Positions 3,921 through 11,085 of a stretch of DNA of 33,830 nt are shown one piece after another. The notes under the pieces were generated by a model. It saw only the letters and a program-made list of their open reading frames with translations. It was not told where the DNA came from and made no database searches. The stretch lies in the IMG/VR virus record IMGVR_UViG_2740892219_000011; one strand, given 5' to 3'. Source of the stretch: a virus. Lineage: Duplodnaviria > Heunggongvirae > Uroviricota > Caudoviricetes. Made by a program: the position numbers and the translations under genes. The stretch's first letter is position 1, and each line of letters starts with the position of its first letter.

Positions 3921-4148
3921 ATGATGGCCCGAAATATAAAAATGGCAACGGATGCGCAGAACTGGTTACAGGCGCGCGGGAGTCATGTAAATGAATCATA
4001 TCTCGGCGTGGCGCGTCCGATTCTTGAAATCACTTACCCACCGGTGGAACTGGTAAAAAACGCGGTCAGAATTATGGAGCATAAGTCCGGGGTGGCCCGT
4101 TCTGTATGGACGGCCCGTCTTAATGGTTGCCAGATTATCTGGAGATAA
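3921..4148 (+). CDS. kil: Small early protein, Kil-like (host killing / cell-division inhibition), 75 aa
   Basis: First gene after B with RBS AAGGAGAAGAAATT; position and size match Mu kil as I recall. Function not verifiable from sequence alone. Confidence 0.6.
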
Positions 4149-4150
4149 CG

Positions 4151-4381
4151 ATGTGTATTAAAGCTGAAAAATATATTGAATGGGTTAAACACTGTCAGTG
4201 CCACGGGTTGCCGCTGACGACATATAAATGCCCCGGATGTGGTGAACAGATTATGACGCAATGCTCACCCGAAAAGGAAATTCGGGATTCCCTGACATGT
4301 TGTCCGTGGTGCAGCGCGGTTTTCTTTAAGCAGGTAAAAGGCGCGAAGGTAAAAGCCAGCGCAGTTATTCAGAATCAATAA
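4151..4381 (+). CDS. Cys-rich small early protein (putative zinc-binding), 76 aa
   Basis: ORF with RBS GGAGATAA 6 nt upstream of ATG 4151; multiple Cys pairs (CQCH, CPGCG, CCPWC). The upstream start at 4127 lacks an RBS. Confidence 0.6.
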   Translation: MCIKAEKYIEWVKHCQCHGLPLTTYKCPGCGEQIMTQCSPEKEIRDSLTCCPWCSAVFFKQVKGAKVKASAVIQNQ

Positions 4382-6575: not shown

Positions 6576-7105
6576 TGTTTTTTAAAACGTCAAATTCCGC
6601 AGCACTGCTGGCATGGGACCAGTTTATGGCGGACTGCCTGAAACTACGCGAAGAAGCCCGCCATCTTGATAAGGTTCTGGGCTGTGGTTGCCGGTCAGTA
6701 TTCAGCACAGGTATTGGTGGGCGTCATTTTCATGGCGTGAATTTTCCGGGGAATGAGCGCCCCTTCTCGCGGGAGCTGTGGACCGTACAACGGCCCGCAT
6801 CAGGTAACAGTTGCAGGCCCAGAACTTCACGGATACCTGCTCATCTCAGGGAGCAGGCAAGAGAGCTGGCGAAAATATGGCAGGAGAATATTCCGGTCAC
6901 TTACGCCCGCACAGACGCTCTTTTACCCGCACTGGGACTGGATTTCAGCGCAACAATATTCGGGCCGCTCCAGTGGTTCCGTGTTGGTGATGTGATTTAC
7001 GTCATGACGGGGATGACACCCGCACAAGGCCGCATGACTGAAATCCTTTCTGACGAATTTATCCGGGCGCAAAAACAGGCGGAGGTAAACAATGGAAAAC
7101 AATGA
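6575..7105 (+). CDS. Hypothetical early protein, 176 aa
   Basis: Internal ATG at 6575 preceded by AGGAGG and overlapping the upstream stop (GTGATG); the longer ORF from 6536 lacks an RBS. Confidence 0.55.
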   Translation: MFFKTSNSAALLAWDQFMADCLKLREEARHLDKVLGCGCRSVFSTGIGGRHFHGVNFPGNERPFSRELWTVQRPASGNSCRPRTSRIPAHLREQARELAKIWQENIPVTYARTDALLPALGLDFSATIFGPLQWFRVGDVIYVMTGMTPAQGRMTEILSDEFIRAQKQAEVNNGKQ

Positions 7106-7284
7106 AAAACAATGAAACATCGTATTCGTGGCTGGGGAAATTTACCACGGTGAAACAGGAATGCCCGACCTGCGGTAATGAATCTCCTGAATATCTGAAA
7201 GAGTGCCCTCATTGTGGCGGGCAGAAATGCAACCACTGCGATATGGGCGATGACACGGCGTGCATGAATTGTGAAGGTGAATAA
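7102..7284 (+). CDS. Zinc-ribbon protein, 60 aa, four CxxC motifs
   Basis: CPTCG...CPHCGG...CNHCD...CMNCEG. Start overlaps the upstream stop (ATGA) inside a decamer tandem repeat. Confidence 0.6.
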   Translation: MKNNETSYSWLGKFTTVKQECPTCGNESPEYLKECPHCGGQKCNHCDMGDDTACMNCEGE

Positions 7285-7952: not shown

Positions 7953-8504
7953 ATGAGTCGCACATCCCTGATTAAATTAATCCATGTCGCCCGTCGGGAG
8001 CTACAACTCGACGACGACACTTACCGCGCTTTTCTGATGCAGAAAACGGGCAAAATCAGTTGCCGCGAGCTTACGGTTACGCAACTGGAACAGGTGCTCG
8101 ATGCCATGAAAGAACGCGGCTTTAAGAAGCTGAATAAATACCCCCGTCGCCGCTTTAAGGAACATGTCACACCCCGCGAGAAGGTGTATAAAATCTGGCA
8201 GCAGATGGCAGAAGACGGTTTTATTACCGATGGCGGTGATGTGGCGCTGGACAGATATGTTCAACGCCTGACCGCGAAACGCAACGGCGGACAGGGTGTT
8301 TCCACACTGGCGTGGTGTCATGGCGACACGCTGCTGACAGTCCTCGAAACACTCAAACAGTGGCACATCCGCTGTATTCGTGAAGCCTTTTCCCGTCACG
8401 GGCTTCCATTGCCGGTCAGTCCGTCCGGTCGTGAACTGCGCGGCTATGATGCCATGACGGCGGCTTATGCCCATGCCAGAAAGACACAGAGGATGGCACA
8501 ATGA
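7953..8504 (+). CDS. gemA: GemA-like early protein, 183 aa
   Basis: ATG 7953 preceded by GGAGG at 7941-7945; position directly upstream of mor. The long ORF from 7710 is an artefactual upstream extension. Confidence 0.75.
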   Translation: MSRTSLIKLIHVARRELQLDDDTYRAFLMQKTGKISCRELTVTQLEQVLDAMKERGFKKLNKYPRRRFKEHVTPREKVYKIWQQMAEDGFITDGGDVALDRYVQRLTAKRNGGQGVSTLAWCHGDTLLTVLETLKQWHIRCIREAFSRHGLPLPVSPSGRELRGYDAMTAAYAHARKTQRMAQ

Positions 8505-8890
8505 CGGAAGATTTATTTGGTGATTTGCAGGATGACACCATCCTGGCACATCTTGACAATCCCGCAGAGGATACGTCACGCTTTCCGGCACTGCTGGCGG
8601 AGCTGAACGATTTACTACGCGGGGAATTGTCCCGACTGGGTGTTGATCCTGCCCATTCACTGGAGATTGTTGTGGCTATCTGTAAGCATCTGGGCGGCGG
8701 TCAGGTCTACATTCCACGCGGTCAGGTTCTGGACTCGCTGATTCGGGATTTGCGTATCTGGAATGATTTTAACGGTCGCAACGTCAGCGAACTGACCACC
8801 CGTTATGGTGTCACTTTCAATACGGTTTACAAGGCCATTCGCCGGATGCGACGGCTGAAATACCGCCAGTACCAGCCCTCACTTCTGTAA
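8501..8890 (+). CDS. mor: Mor middle-operon transcriptional activator, 129 aa
   Basis: Paralogous to the downstream C ORF (LGGGQVYIPRG / FNGRNVSELTTRYG versus LGGRQFYIPCG / FNGRNMEELRRQYR); last gene of the early operon, followed by a terminator. Confidence 0.9.
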   Translation: MTEDLFGDLQDDTILAHLDNPAEDTSRFPALLAELNDLLRGELSRLGVDPAHSLEIVVAICKHLGGGQVYIPRGQVLDSLIRDLRIWNDFNGRNVSELTTRYGVTFNTVYKAIRRMRRLKYRQYQPSLL

Positions 8891-8895
8891 ACAGT

Positions 8896-8920
8896 AAAGC
8901 CGGTTAATCCGGCTTTTTTT
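8896..8920 (+). terminator. Intrinsic terminator ending the early transcript
   Basis: Hairpin AAGCCGG-TTAAT-CCGGCTT followed by a 7-T run, immediately after the mor stop. Confidence 0.8.
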
Positions 8921-8967
8921 ACGTCCTCAATATCCTGTGATGAATAACCGTACCGGGGGAAATCATC

Positions 8968-9186
8968 ATGGGTAAAGGCTGGAATGCATCCTTTCATCTT
9001 GGCAGACGTGAGCGGCTGCGTCAGGAGGTTTTGCACCGTGTCGCCGGTGGGCCACGTCCTGCGCCCCGCGACTATACCGGTCATGATGGCACCCACGGCA
9101 GTTATTACATGAAAGGCTGGCAGTCAGTTGATATGCCGGAAATTCTTCATCATTGCCTGCTTTACAGGGAGAAACATTATGTCTGA
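8968..9186 (+). CDS. Hypothetical protein, 72 aa, first ORF of the presumed middle operon
   Basis: ORF with RBS GGGGGAAA. The Mor-dependent middle promoter is expected in the roughly 50 bp between the terminator and this start; not positioned. Confidence 0.45.
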   Translation: MGKGWNASFHLGRRERLRQEVLHRVAGGPRPAPRDYTGHDGTHGSYYMKGWQSVDMPEILHHCLLYREKHYV

Positions 9187-9541
9187 GCGTTCTGCTCGTC
9201 AGTGGCCTGATTTTTTATCGGTGGTGTTACTGGCGCTGTTATTGTGGATAAGTCTGTTTTGTGGCTGGCGCGCGCTGATGTTTTGCTGTGCCTCGGTTTT
9301 CAGTGTTGCTTTATGTGTTGCCGGTGATTGCCTGGATGCGCTGATAATGAGCTGCCGGGTGCCTGAACATTTTGCCCGGTTCGTCTGGCCTCTGACCTGG
9401 CTGGGGAGTCTGTCCGGGCTGGGATTAGCCGTGATGGCCACGTCTCAACTGAAAACGGGTCCTGAGCATGTCATCTGGGCGCTGGCCGGATTGCTGACGT
9501 TCTGGATCTCCTTTCGTTTTCGCGCTCGTCTGTTCGGGTAA
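9179..9541 (+). CDS. Cys-rich integral membrane protein, 120 aa
   Basis: RBS AGGGAGAAA; several hydrophobic helices (VVLLALLLWISLF, LGLAVMA, ALAGLLTFWI). Confidence 0.6.
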   Translation: MSERSARQWPDFLSVVLLALLLWISLFCGWRALMFCCASVFSVALCVAGDCLDALIMSCRVPEHFARFVWPLTWLGSLSGLGLAVMATSQLKTGPEHVIWALAGLLTFWISFRFRARLFG

Positions 9542-9550
9542 AGGGGCACC

Positions 9551-9670
9551 ATGTACAGAAAATTCAGTGATGAATGTTTCGGGCCGTCCACGCTGATTAG
9601 TGCGATAAAAGTGATTGCCCTTGTGGTTCTGATAACCATCAGTGCCGTGGTGTATCTTTCTGTCTGTTAA
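9551..9670 (+). CDS. Small hydrophobic peptide, 39 aa, single predicted TM helix
   Basis: Hand-translated: MYRKFSDECFGPSTLISAIKVIALVVLITISAVVYLSVC, RBS AAGGGG; below the ORF-track size cut-off. Confidence 0.4.
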   Translation: MYRKFSDECFGPSTLISAIKVIALVVLITISAVVYLSVC

Positions 9671-9682
9671 CCGGGGGAAAAT

Positions 9683-10105
9683 ATGCAGCATGATTTATTT
9701 GAACACGATCCGGCAATTCGCCAGTTAATCGGACATATTGATAACATCCCGGCCCCGGAACTGGAATCACGCTGGCCCCGTTCGGTGGTTGATCTGATTG
9801 ATGTTCTGGAAAACGAACTGAAACGCCAGAACGTCAGCAATCCCCGTGAACTTGCCCGTAAACAGGCCGTTGCCCTGTCATGTTTTCTGGGTGGACGGCA
9901 GTTTTACATCCCCTGCGGCGATACGATCCTGACCGCGTTACGCGACGATTTGCTTTACTGCCAGTTTAATGGTCGTAACATGGAAGAACTGCGTCGCCAG
10001 TACCGCCTGTCCCAGCCGCAGATCTACCAGATTATTGCCCGCCAGAGAAAGCTGCATACACGACGTCATCAGCCTGATCTGTTCTCACCTGAAAGCCCAA
10101 AATAA
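9683..10105 (+). CDS. C: C late-gene transcriptional activator (Mor/C family), 140 aa
   Basis: Paralog of mor (shared C-terminal DNA-binding region); located just upstream of the lysis and late genes. Confidence 0.9.
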   Translation: MQHDLFEHDPAIRQLIGHIDNIPAPELESRWPRSVVDLIDVLENELKRQNVSNPRELARKQAVALSCFLGGRQFYIPCGDTILTALRDDLLYCQFNGRNMEELRRQYRLSQPQIYQIIARQRKLHTRRHQPDLFSPESPK

Positions 10106-10126
10106 CCGGCATCCTGCCGGTTATTT
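10104..10126 (+). terminator. Hairpin, probable terminator of the middle transcript
   Basis: AACCGGCA-TCC-TGCCGGTT stem-loop overlapping the C stop, followed by TTATTT (weak U-tract). Confidence 0.5.
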
Positions 10127-10196
10127 CCTGTCACCATAATCCCGCATCTGCCACCTGATTTTTTAGACTGCCATCAGAGCATTTTTTCAGGGAAGC
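10127..10196 (+). promoter_or_regulatory. Candidate C-dependent late promoter upstream of lys
   Basis: Contains CATAATCCCGC...TTTTTT at 10134-10165, similar to motifs upstream of I and of the tape-measure gene. Confidence 0.5.
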
Positions 10197-10715
10197 ATGA
10201 TGGCGGGGATACCAAAAAAACTGAAAGCCACACTGCTGGCTGTAACGATTGCCGGTGGCGGTGTGGGTGGTTATCAGGAAATGACCCGTCAGTCTCTGAT
10301 CCATCTGGAAAATATCGCTTATATGCCTTACCGCGATATTGCCGGTGTGCTTACGGTCTGTGTGGGACATACCGGGCCGGATATCGAAATGCGCCGTTAC
10401 AGCCATGCGGAGTGTATGGCTCTCCTCGACAGTGATTTAAAACCGGTTTATGCGGCAATCGATCGTCTTGTCAGGGTGCCGCTGACGCCATATCAGAAAA
10501 CGGCGCTGGCAACGTTTATTTTCAACACTGGTGTTACCGCATTCAGTAAATCAACGCTGCTGAAAAAACTCAATGCCGGTGATTACGCCGGAGCGCGTGA
10601 CCAGATGGCCCGCTGGGTGTTTGCCGCAGGCCATAAATGGAAAGGACTGATGAACCGTCGCGAAGTGGAAATGGCAATCTGGAATATCAGGGGGGCGGAT
10701 GACCTTCGCAAGTAA
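10197..10715 (+). CDS. lys: Endolysin, T4-lysozyme-like with N-terminal signal-anchor-release (SAR) domain, 172 aa
   Basis: Catalytic spacing E-8aa-D-5aa-T in ENIAYMPYRDIAGVLT; N-terminal weakly hydrophobic Gly/Ala-rich segment KATLLAVTIAGGGVGG typical of SAR endolysins. Confidence 0.85.
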   Translation: MMAGIPKKLKATLLAVTIAGGGVGGYQEMTRQSLIHLENIAYMPYRDIAGVLTVCVGHTGPDIEMRRYSHAECMALLDSDLKPVYAAIDRLVRVPLTPYQKTALATFIFNTGVTAFSKSTLLKKLNAGDYAGARDQMARWVFAAGHKWKGLMNRREVEMAIWNIRGADDLRK

Positions 10716-11085
10716 AAGTTTACTGCTGGCAGCCGTGTTTGCCGCCGTTCTGTCCGGTGTGTTGTGGCACAGGCTGGGCAGCACCCGCCACGATAACCAG
10801 ACGCTGCGCCGTGAATTACAGACGGAGCAACAGGCCCGCCACACGGCTGAATGGTTGTTACACGGTCAGGAGCAAACGATGCAGGTATTTTCCGCTATCC
10901 GTGCCGCAAATCGTGCCGCGCGGCTGGCAGACGAGACAGAACATCATGATGCAAAACAAAAAATTACAACCGCCATTACCGGTGACAATTGCAGCACTCG
11001 TCCTGTGCCTGCCGGTGCTGCTGACAGGTTGCGGGAACTCGAAAAACGCACCCGTGCCATCGGTGGTGCTCCTGCCCGAAACTGA
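10699..11085 (+). CDS. Rz-like inner-membrane spanin (i-spanin), 128 aa
   Basis: N-terminal TM helix (LLLAAVFAAVLSGVLW) followed by a charged, Gln/Arg-rich helical periplasmic domain; directly downstream of the endolysin. Confidence 0.7.
   Translation: MTFASKSLLLAAVFAAVLSGVLWHRLGSTRHDNQTLRRELQTEQQARHTAEWLLHGQEQTMQVFSAIRAANRAARLADETEHHDAKQKITTAITGDNCSTRPVPAGAADRLRELEKRTRAIGGAPARN

Follow-up and report, generated by a model that had tools for sequence, protein, structure and literature searches.

Genes 18 and 19 of the bacteriophage Mu middle operon as probable relics of an ancestral Mu-like lysis cassette

Why does a Mu-type phage carry genes for small membrane proteins between its two paralogous transcription activators, immediately before the lysis genes? 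The question is raised by positions 8501-10105 of a caudoviral DNA of 33,830 nucleotides (IMG/VR record IMGVR_UViG_2740892219_000011; the whole stretch is called the window here). This region consists of Mu mor, the middle promoter Pm, which requires Mor, and the genes 18-19-20-C of the middle operon; it is 98.4% identical in nucleotide sequence to Mu and 99.9% identical to Mu_3F6, with matching annotation. All five open reading frames of the original prediction are present and had been identified correctly, as judged by their match to AF083977 (NC_000929), where they are Mu_17 to Mu_21 at a constant offset of 280 nt. The window shares genes, gene order, spacing, promoter and terminators with the reference Mu middle operon, and differs from it by a few substitutions, with two residues changed in gp19 and one in gp20. 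The Mu middle operon itself is already known and belongs to textbook Mu biology; what this analysis adds is a modestly useful comparative by-product, namely the adjacency of gp18 homologs to endolysin genes, the kinship of gp19 with a family of proteins with four transmembrane segments (4-TM) and the presence of a GH108 endolysin gene in sister phages. Taken as a whole, we consider it likely that the region represents the Mu middle-transcription module, that genes 18, 19 and 20 are non-essential passengers in it, and that 18 and 19 are remnants of an ancestral Mu-like lysis cassette. The features of the region are as follows.

8501-8890, plus strand: mor (Mu gene 17; Mu_17, "middle operon regulator"), 129 aa, Mor, activator of the middle promoter; PF08765, E 4e-33
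8883-8953, plus strand: Pm, middle promoter, mapped from the AF083977 promoter feature 9163-9233
8896-8920, plus strand: predicted G+C-rich terminator hairpin, AAAGCCGG-TTAAT-CCGGCTTT followed by a T-run, just 3' of mor and overlapping the Mor-binding region of Pm; the AF083977 terminator 9179-9200 corresponds to 8899-8920
8968-9186, plus strand: gene 18 (E18), 72-aa soluble basic protein with three predicted helices; gp18 family, precomputed Pfam PF26867; phrog_2121
9179-9541, plus strand: gene 19 (E19), 120-aa polytopic inner-membrane protein; phrog_4975; 8-nt overlap (ATGTCTGA) between its start and the stop of gene 18
9551-9670, plus strand: gene 20, 39-aa single-pass membrane peptide; phrog_19823
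9683-10105, plus strand: C (gene 21; Mu_21), 140 aa, activator of the late genes and paralog of Mor; PF08765
10103-10123, plus strand: perfect 9-bp hairpin TAACCGGCA-tcc-TGCCGGTTA over the C stop codon, where the middle transcript is predicted to end; the AF083977 terminator 10383-10406 corresponds to 10103-10126
10123-10189, plus strand: Plys, C-dependent late promoter preceding the SAR endolysin gene (AF083977 promoter feature 10403-10469)
10200-10715, plus strand: lys, SAR endolysin gene; PF00959, E 1e-37

The paralogy of Mor and C, proposed on the basis of similar C-termini, is confirmed, and the likeness spans their full length including an N-terminal DLF motif. The two proteins are 37% identical over 134 residues (BLASTP, E 7e-24), the PF08765 profile matches both in full length (114 bits for Mor, 116 bits for C; gathering cutoff 24.9; E ∼1e-33), and phrog_532 ("late transcriptional activator") matches Mor with E 1e-45 and C with E 6e-50. 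Beta-clamp-binding motifs related to QL[SD]LF have been reported at the termini of the Mor/C family (Ho and Harshey, 2026; PMC12867686); the window Mor begins with MTEDLF, which contains such a DLF clamp-binding-like motif, and the translation of C has MQHDLF at its N-terminus and QPDLF near its C-terminus, both of them candidate clamp-binding motifs. The impression that the two activators bracket a membrane-protein operon is right in so far as both flank 18-19-20; however, mor closes the early transcript, Pm separates it from gene 18, and C forms the end of the middle operon (AF083977 annotation; PMC4390567), of which it is the sole essential product.

As described in PMC4390567, PMC4287176 and a 2025 bioRxiv structure paper, Mor, the last product of early transcription, recognizes a dyad in Pm, a promoter without a −35 element, and brings in sigma-70 RNA polymerase. 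The Mor element of Pm comprises 16 bp, with two 5-bp inverted repeats and a 6-bp G/C spacer, and is centred at −43.5 (PMC4390567). Following this description rather than a footprint, we place the putative dyad AGTAA-AGCCGG-TTAAT at about 8893-8908, a putative −10 element TATCCT at 8931-8936 and +1 near 8944, with no −35 element; over this region the window has the same sequence as the annotated Pm of Mu. A generic sigma-70 scan called no promoter at Pm, as expected for an activator-dependent promoter that lacks a −35 element. The hairpin after mor does not vary among Mu, SfMu and the type B phages described below. An Rfam scan of 8300-10400 yielded nothing above threshold, the only hit being sroD (20 bits; gathering score 50). 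Downstream of Pm the genes are closely packed, with an overlap of 8 nt between 18 and 19, gaps of 9 nt between 19 and 20 and of 12 nt between 20 and C, and a Shine-Dalgarno sequence for each. Pm gives rise to a single compact, translationally coupled transcript 18-19-20-C, and C then switches on Plys and the remaining late promoters, as established in the literature.

Gene 18 of the window directly follows Pm and is not adjacent to an endolysin gene, lys being located about 1 kb downstream, beyond C. Among 83 Mu-like loci without the Mu/SfMu layout, the gp18-family gene stands directly after an endolysin gene in 82. When the IMG/VR and phage-record loci of types A and B without this layout are considered (72 loci, including four more distant phage records, three of which fit the adjacency), the distance between the end of a GH108 endolysin gene and the start of the gp18 homolog is no more than a few dozen nt, and usually 10 nt or less, in 71. 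In about 60 of these loci there is one Mor-type activator, and the gene order is GH108, gp18, 4-TM protein, 201-aa holin-like protein, (gp25), gp26, gp27; in 11 loci (type B) the order is Mor, Pm, GH108, gp18, (19), 20, C, Lys22. The same neighborhood is found in other genera (Vibrio, Shewanella, Aeromonas, Pseudoalteromonas, Rheinheimera and others), where, in each of 22 loci, the start of the gp18 homolog falls between −29 and +10 nt relative to the end of the gene upstream of it; this upstream gene is of the GH108 type in 11, DUF5675 in 9 and GH24 in 2, and a holin-like protein follows in 17.

In SfMu, PhiR68_1 and Yersinia vB_YpM_3, mor, Pm and genes 18, 20 and C are near-identical to those of the window, but gene 19 is precisely absent and the GTG start of gene 20 overlaps the end of gene 18. 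The type B phages (Yersinia vB_YpM_5/6 and related E. coli prophages) resemble the window in Mor, the Pm core, 18, 20, C, Plys and the SAR endolysin, but differ in that an intact 186-aa endolysin with Glyco_hydro_108 and PG_binding_3 domains, absent from the window, comes first after Pm, its stop overlapping the start of gene 18. The Pm core is conserved upstream of this GH108 gene, which is intact in 11 of 11 loci and has a pN/pS of 0.02-0.05. The Klebsiella/Enterobacter-type Mu-like prophages (e.g., Klebsiella phage Kp4866-3) and the marine Mu-like phages (Shewanella MuM16-2, Pseudoalteromonas HS6, Vibrio martha 12B12) share the gp18-family gene and the same start/stop overlaps with the window, whereas their genes lie between the endolysin and a GTA_holin_3TM-like protein, a single Mor-type activator is present, and a C paralog, gene 20 and the SAR endolysin are lacking.

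In the enterobacterial Mu-like cassettes, the gp18-family gene is followed by a 4-TM protein that is homologous to gp19 at the profile level. The reading of gp19 as a 120-aa polytopic membrane protein is well supported, with four transmembrane segments and N-in/C-in topology in the curated Mu record (Phobius/TMHMM) and two strong hydrophobic segments in a Kyte-Doolittle scan. Its sequence relatives are few: searches of 5.8e9 and 1.84e9 proteins returned only its own narrow family, and phmmer against the 1.84e9 representatives retrieved this family and two spurious TPR proteins but not the 4-TM family. Profile against profile, gp19 and the 4-TM family (phrog_12596) align over 95 columns (hhalign Prob 90.7%, E 1.2e-6; reversed controls 0.3-0.7%; 73% with an earlier, shallower gp19 profile), a homology visible at this level only and of a kind in which membrane proteins can inflate the scores. 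Both genes start 7 nt upstream of the final base of the gp18 stop codon and encode proteins of 120-141 aa. PHROGs files gp19 (phrog_4975) apart from the 4-TM family. The description of gp19 as Cys-rich applies to the window copy, with 6 cysteines in 120 residues, but not to the diverged homologs (L022, P0096), in which C46 alone is kept, and conserved cysteines were therefore dropped as a clue to its function.

Because of the endolysin adjacency of gp18, the profile homology of gp19 with the 4-TM protein and the GH108 gene at the head of the Pm operon in sister phages, genes 18 and 19 are probably remnants of an ancestral lysis cassette that were left behind upstream of C. The ancestral order would have been endolysin, gp18-like protein, 4-TM protein, GTA-type holin-like protein, gp24-like protein and DUF2730, and genes 18 and 19 would be the rest of its endolysin-proximal half. 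In the Mu lineage, the holin-like gene may have been replaced by gene 20, C, Plys, the SAR endolysin and the spanins, which would have left 18-19-20 under Pm. The GH108 endolysin gene in front of gene 18 would have been kept in the sister phages and lost in Mu, D108 and SfMu, a direction (loss in Mu, not gain in type B) that is based on parsimony in a highly mosaic region. The mosaicism is apparent from dS between the window and locus L020, which is ∼1.1 for gene 18 and 0.02 for gene 19. This would explain why Mu, a phage without a holin, has orphan membrane-protein genes beside its lysis genes: they look like fossils of a cassette that depended on one. In some viable Mu relatives, for example Yersinia phage vB_YpM_5, each of two endolysins is controlled by a regulator of its own, and such phages might serve as natural material for studying the move of Mu from holin- to releasin-controlled lysis.

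The distribution of gene 19 fits the role of a passenger. It is precisely absent from the plaque-forming SfMu, from several Yersinia Mu-like phages and from about half of the E. coli Mu-type prophages, and present in 20 of 41 carriers among complete E. coli genomes; the phage collection holds 6 records with gp19 and 14 with gp20. Since SfMu-type phages without gene 19 form plaques, gp19 must be dispensable. Its dispensability and frequent loss would be explained by Mu lysis now running on the SAR endolysin and the gp25 releasin. Nevertheless, pN/pS is ∼0.35-0.45 both for gp19 and for the 4-TM family in intact cassettes, i.e., gp19 evolves no faster, and as it displays no additional sequence decay it may still do something. 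Gene 20 is found in all Mu, SfMu and type B loci and nowhere else. The 39-aa peptide has one strong transmembrane segment, as had been predicted (curated record and hydropathy), a pN/pS of ∼0.37-0.44 and no detectable relative outside Mu-type phages; the idea that it is a remnant of the holin-like protein whose position it takes was rejected, as hhalign revealed no similarity between the two.

Gene 18 is strongly constrained (dN/dS 0.04-0.17), and this strong purifying selection indicates that gp18 retains some function. The precomputed label PF26867 is attached to all 86 clusters of gp18 homologs, among them clusters with 93% identity to the gp18 of the window, and the N-terminal part of phrog_2121 matches gp18 with E 3e-36; the family stands out as conserved, uncharacterised and linked to lysis cassettes. 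Our own searches with gp18, gp19 and gp20 against Pfam, NCBIfam and PADLOC gave no significant family, and for gp18 neither Foldseek (AF2 model, pLDDT 87) nor a PDB sequence-profile search with the family (best E 0.69) gave a significant match. Resemblance to ribosome modulation factor (RMF) or to the RNA polymerase omega subunit was discarded (Foldseek E>1, TM 0.2-0.45; for E. coli RMF, hhalign Prob 0.3%). The phrog_2121 profile has 284 columns, of which gp18 covers 3-87 and the holin-like protein 88-284. A "Rosetta-stone" fusion of the two was not confirmed, as none of the 86 homolog clusters exceeds 106 aa, and the combined profile is probably a clustering artefact or a rare mis-annotation. 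It is tempting to speculate that gp18 (PF26867) is an unrecognised cytoplasmic component of lysis cassettes, encoded between the endolysin (GH108, GH24 or DUF5675) and the GTA-type holin-like protein. The Mor-dependent operon of the sister phages would then be a second lysis module, expressed earlier (GH108 + gp18 + gp20, with or without gp19), and the orphaned but still strongly constrained gp18 of Mu would modulate the holin-less SAR-endolysin/releasin pathway or the expression of C. We regard this proposal as tentative and, on balance, unlikely.

Alternatively, the products of genes 19 and 20 might be irrelevant, and what is selected might be continuous, coupled translation of a leader of ∼700 nt, which would spare C from Rho-dependent polarity and set the delay between Mor and C. 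The very tight spacing with Shine-Dalgarno sequences throughout would suit such a role, as would the exactness of the natural gene 19 deletion, which re-creates the start/stop overlap between 18 and 20, and the relaxed constraint on gp19 and gp20 (pN/pS 0.33-0.49) in comparison to Mor and C (0.03-0.13, the range also of dN/dS for C). But these pN/pS values are clearly below 1, gp19 homologs with an identity of only ∼38% preserve the transmembrane pattern and a GWRA-type motif, and gp18 is strongly constrained as a protein. Moreover, a frameshifted allele of gene 19 (L014/P0014) persists in 27 database members, so that unbroken translation of this gene is not strictly required. Selection on translation in place of the products is, in our view, quite improbable.

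Little credence is also given to the possibility that gp19, gp20 or both belong to the accessory, moron-like membrane proteins and serve superinfection exclusion, as had been considered for them, receptor masking or another change of the host membrane in lytic growth. Small membrane proteins of patchy, lineage-restricted occurrence would be in keeping with this, gp19 being confined to a subset of the Mu-type phages, and polymorphism of presence and absence is typical for accessory genes. However, neither a defence nor an exclusion family was matched (none below E 0.05 in PADLOC, none in NCBIfam and only sub-threshold noise in Pfam), the G+C content is genome-like rather than foreign, and position and profile homology favor ancestry in a lysis cassette. 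Exclusion genes usually act in lysogens. As Pm is absolutely Mor-dependent, according to PMC4287176 and PMC4390567, and active only in lytic growth, gp19 and gp20 are not expected in lysogens, which disfavors superinfection exclusion.

Finally, the membrane proteins had been suspected of influencing lysis timing as holin- or antiholin-like proteins, and a holin/antiholin role for gp19 and gp20 had in fact been proposed in print before (Samanta et al., 2021, cited by PMC9239132). [quoted passage not shown] The lysis-related intuition holds for the ancestry of genes 18 and 19, whose homologs sit inside the lysis cassettes of other Mu-like phages, but not for present function in Mu. According to PMC9239132, inactivation of 19 and 20 has no significant effect on lysis (Mathee and Howe, 1993, cited therein). 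Cells in which gp19, gp20 or both had been induced survived 2 mM DNP, in contrast to the lethality of lambda S105 and phage 21 S68. DNP delays Mu lysis rather than triggering it, and Mu was concluded to have no holin (Chamblee et al., 2022; PMC9239132). That gp19 and gp20 form a holin/antiholin pair or another lysis-timing device acting just before synthesis of the SAR endolysin is thus highly improbable and, for Mu, already largely refuted, even though they are encoded beside lysis genes, have homologs or positional equivalents in lysis cassettes elsewhere, and share their operon in sister phages with a selected cytoplasmic GH108 endolysin that would need a route through the membrane. Phages without gene 19 are viable and still lyse, and so does the construct pBAD18-Kan-Mu-gp22-gp25, listed with "genes 18-21 deleted" (PMC9239132).

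The middle operon proved to be that of phage Mu and is, as such, already known. Over its full length, window 8000-11000 is 99.9% identical to Escherichia virus Mu_3F6 and 98.4% identical to Mu itself (AF083977/NC_000929) by megablast, and the ORFs correspond one-to-one, at an offset of 280 nt, to genes of the curated Mu record, which bears out the small-ORF and mor/C gene calls of the original prediction.

Elements of the region, in window coordinates
8501-8890: mor (Mu_17; curated Mu record)
8883-8953 (Mu 9163-9233): Pm, the Mor-activated middle promoter (curated Mu record)
8896-8920: predicted terminator hairpin within Pm (terminator-like site scan)
8968-9186: gene 18 (E18; curated Mu record)
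9179-9541: gene 19 (E19), annotated with 4 TM segments, N-in/C-in
9551-9670: gene 20, 1 TM segment
9683-10105: C (Mu_21; curated Mu record)
10103-10123: terminator hairpin across the C stop codon (read from the sequence)
downstream of this hairpin: Plys, the C-dependent late promoter, then the SAR endolysin gene (curated Mu record)

An 8-nt overlap joins genes 18 and 19, gaps of 9 nt (19 to 20) and 12 nt (20 to C) follow, and a purine-rich Shine-Dalgarno sequence lies ahead of each gene. At 0.43-0.55, against a window mean of 0.52, the three small genes are unremarkable in G+C content, and an Rfam scan found no family in the region. The literature and the sequence identity together show that Mor activates Pm, that Pm drives an 18-19-20-C transcript and that C activates the late promoters. 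The two regulators do flank genes 18-20, but mor closes the early transcript whereas C itself belongs to the middle operon, as its last gene, and therefore the bracketing originally described is not symmetrical. Their paralogy stands (37% identity over 134 residues, E 7e-24), although not as a C-terminal similarity, since both match PF08765 over the full length. DLF-type motifs are visible in the translations of Mor (MTEDLF, 8501-8520) and C (MQHDLF, 9683-9700; QPDLF near the C-terminus, 10080-10095), and both proteins thus appear to keep the beta-sliding-clamp-binding motifs that were reported in 2026 as required for C function and C-dependent transcription (PMC12867686).

A role of the gene 19 and 20 products in superinfection exclusion is disfavoured, because their expression needs Mor and is confined to lytic growth. 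Published experiments, together with natural phages that lack gene 19, refute for Mu the holin or antiholin function that the original prediction considered for these membrane proteins and that Samanta et al. (2021, as cited in PMC9239132) proposed for gp19 and gp20 as a pair. Mathee & Howe (1993, as cited in PMC9239132) saw no significant change in lysis when these two genes were inactivated. Cells with arabinose-induced gp19, gp20 or both stay viable after DNP, those with lambda S105 or phage 21 S68 are killed, and Mu lysis is delayed rather than triggered by DNP (Chamblee et al., 2022, PMC9239132). Mu has no holin, its SAR endolysin being freed by the gp25 "releasin," and genes 18-21 are listed as deleted in the plasmid pBAD18-Kan-Mu-gp22-gp25, which causes lysis (PMC9239132). 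The literature and the sequence identity show genes 18-20 to be dispensable for growth and lysis in the laboratory.

Natural variation in gene 19 agrees with these lysis experiments. When the window, Mu and SfMu are aligned, SfMu, an inducible phage forming plaques, proves to lack exactly gene 19, and its gene 20 (GTG start) takes gene 19's place in overlapping the gene 18 end. In a phage collection gp19 occurs in 6 records, all Mu, D108 or Mu_3F6, gp20 in 14 and gp18 in 20, while the region is present in 41 of 5,426 complete E. coli genomes and gene 19 in 20 of these 41. A second natural kind of loss, beside the clean deletion, is a frameshifted, truncated allele in E. coli Mu-type prophages (locus L014:~3994-4280; protein cluster P0014, 95 aa, 27 members). 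The gp19 family is extremely lineage-restricted (6 clusters among 5.8 billion proteins), and an exhaustive HMMER search of 1.84 billion representatives retrieved nothing beyond this family, whose members include a variant, P0096, with 38% identity. The window copy is Cys-rich, as originally noted, with six cysteines, but C46 alone is conserved in homologs of ∼38% identity, and the cysteine richness is therefore probably incidental.

Gene 18 is, by comparison with gene 19, broadly conserved, with 86 clusters over Enterobacterales, Vibrio, Shewanella, Pseudoalteromonas and Aeromonas, all carrying PF26867 as a precomputed label (the local Pfam copy lacks this model). We compared its neighbourhood in 80 IMG/VR loci fetched with a gp18 profile, the window and five annotated phage records, typing neighbours by tblastn.

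Layouts of gp18-carrying loci
Type A (∼60 loci): GemA, Mor, GH108 endolysin, gp18, 4-TM (a membrane protein), 201-aa protein, (gp25-like), gp26, gp27
Type B (11 loci): Mor, GH108 endolysin, gp18, (gp19), gp20, C, SAR endolysin (Lys22) onward
Mu type: window and 8 loci
SfMu type (6 loci): without gene 19

Type A loci have a single Mor-type activator and neither C nor a SAR endolysin. The gene upstream of gp18 encodes Glyco_hydro_108 and PG_binding_3 domains (Pfam), and the 201-aa protein, like its marine counterparts, resembles GTA_holin_3TM (PF11351), strongly for HS6 gp36 and weakly for the others. A second, independent sample was drawn from other genera (22 species-representative genomes). 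At all 22 loci the distance between the end of the preceding gene and the start of the gp18 homolog is -29 to +10 nt, and a holin-like protein follows at 17. The upstream gene is of GH108 type in 11 and DUF5675 in 9, the latter taken as the martha endolysin by synteny (Chamblee et al., PMC9239132); it is a GH24 lysozyme in 2 Aeromonas loci, and 2 further loci have no assigned type. The PF26867 family lies directly after an endolysin gene in essentially every Mu-like phage without the Mu or SfMu layout (L004-L110), whatever the endolysin type (GH108, GH24 or DUF5675), usually with a GTA_holin_3TM-like protein next.

A confident AlphaFold2 model of gp18 (57 sequences, pLDDT 87) has three helices and no significant Foldseek match in PDB or BFVD; sequence searches gave none in PDB (profile), NCBIfam or PADLOC, and a weak lead to an RMF-like protein was tested and rejected. 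The 284 columns of phrog_2121 join a gp18-like part (3-87) to a ∼200-aa holin-like protein (88-284), but no fused protein exists among the 86 clusters, and this family is therefore probably chimeric, e.g., through a mis-called read-through ORF.

Directly after gp18, type A loci encode a four-TM protein of 127-141 aa, whose start overlaps the gp18 stop just as that of gene 19 does in Mu. Compared profile to profile, five gp19-family sequences and ten of these 4-TM proteins match with Prob 90.7% (E 1.2e-6, 95 aligned columns across all TM segments), against 0.3-0.7% with either side reversed. A shallower first profile had given 73%. It is thus probable that gp19 is a diverged lysis-cassette member; for gp20, no relationship to the holin-like protein at the replaced position was found. 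We infer that genes 18 and 19 would be stranded remnants of the leading half of an ancestral lysis cassette (endolysin, gp18, 4-TM, holin-like), in which the Mu lineage would have replaced the holin-like gene by gene 20, C, Plys, the SAR endolysin and the spanins. The GH108 endolysin, by then redundant, would have been lost from Mu, D108 and SfMu and kept in type B. The direction of these changes rests on parsimony in a mosaic region. The scenario fits the holin-less state of Mu and is a modest evolutionary footnote.

Type B phages keep the core of Pm (hairpin, T-run and the bases up to and including ATAT(C/T)CTGT) between mor and the GH108 gene, and divergence from Mu begins directly after the presumed -10. 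The GH108 gene is intact (186 aa) in 11/11 loci, is under strong purifying selection (pN/pS 0.02-0.05) and is, judged from its sequence, a working gene. As the first gene after Pm (L020:3448-4008; L024:3448-4008; L088:1274-1834) it occurs in an isolated phage of this layout, Yersinia phage vB_YpM_5 (L088), and in at least 6 complete E. coli genomes; the window lacks it (between 8937 and 8968). Certain close relatives of Mu hence carry two endolysins under two regulators, GH108 behind the Mor-dependent Pm and the C-dependent SAR endolysin. The vB_YpM_5 record labels the former only "hypothetical protein," and a text search of the paper describing those Yersinia phages found no mention of it. 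In prophage L022 a stretch of ∼41 bp with the Pm hairpin and the Mor-site region (GCCGGTTAATCCGG...TTTTTTTACGCCCTCAAT, present twice) is tandemly duplicated between mor and GH108 (2387-2540). This prophage may be degenerate, because its 142-aa SAR-endolysin-like ORF is truncated or diverged and spanin and gp24 genes were not detectable.

Nei-Gojobori dN/dS estimates are 0.04-0.17 for gp18, which is clearly under selection, 0.07-0.12 for Mor and 0.03-0.13 for C, against ∼0.33-0.49 for gp19 and 0.37-0.44 for gp20. Since the 4-TM family evolves equally fast in intact type A cassettes (0.33-0.44), the gp19 rate belongs to the family as a whole and does not point to decay; that gp19 is dispensable is visible in presence and absence, not in sequence. 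Between the window and L020, synonymous divergence is ∼1.1 in gene 18 vs 0.02 in gene 19, a sharp mosaic boundary that indicates recent recombination exactly at the overlapping stop and start.

Two further small ORFs were observed. In Klebsiella phage Kp4866-3 (L007:984-1316) a 110-aa ORF, high in Ile, Phe, Lys and Asn and with a number of hydrophobic segments, separates the Mor-like gene from the GH108 endolysin and looks like an inserted moron. At window 7102-7284, a 60-aa ORF (gp13/E14, annotated hypothetical in Mu) has four CxxC pairs (CPTC, CPHC, CNHC, CMNC) and looks like a small double zinc-ribbon.
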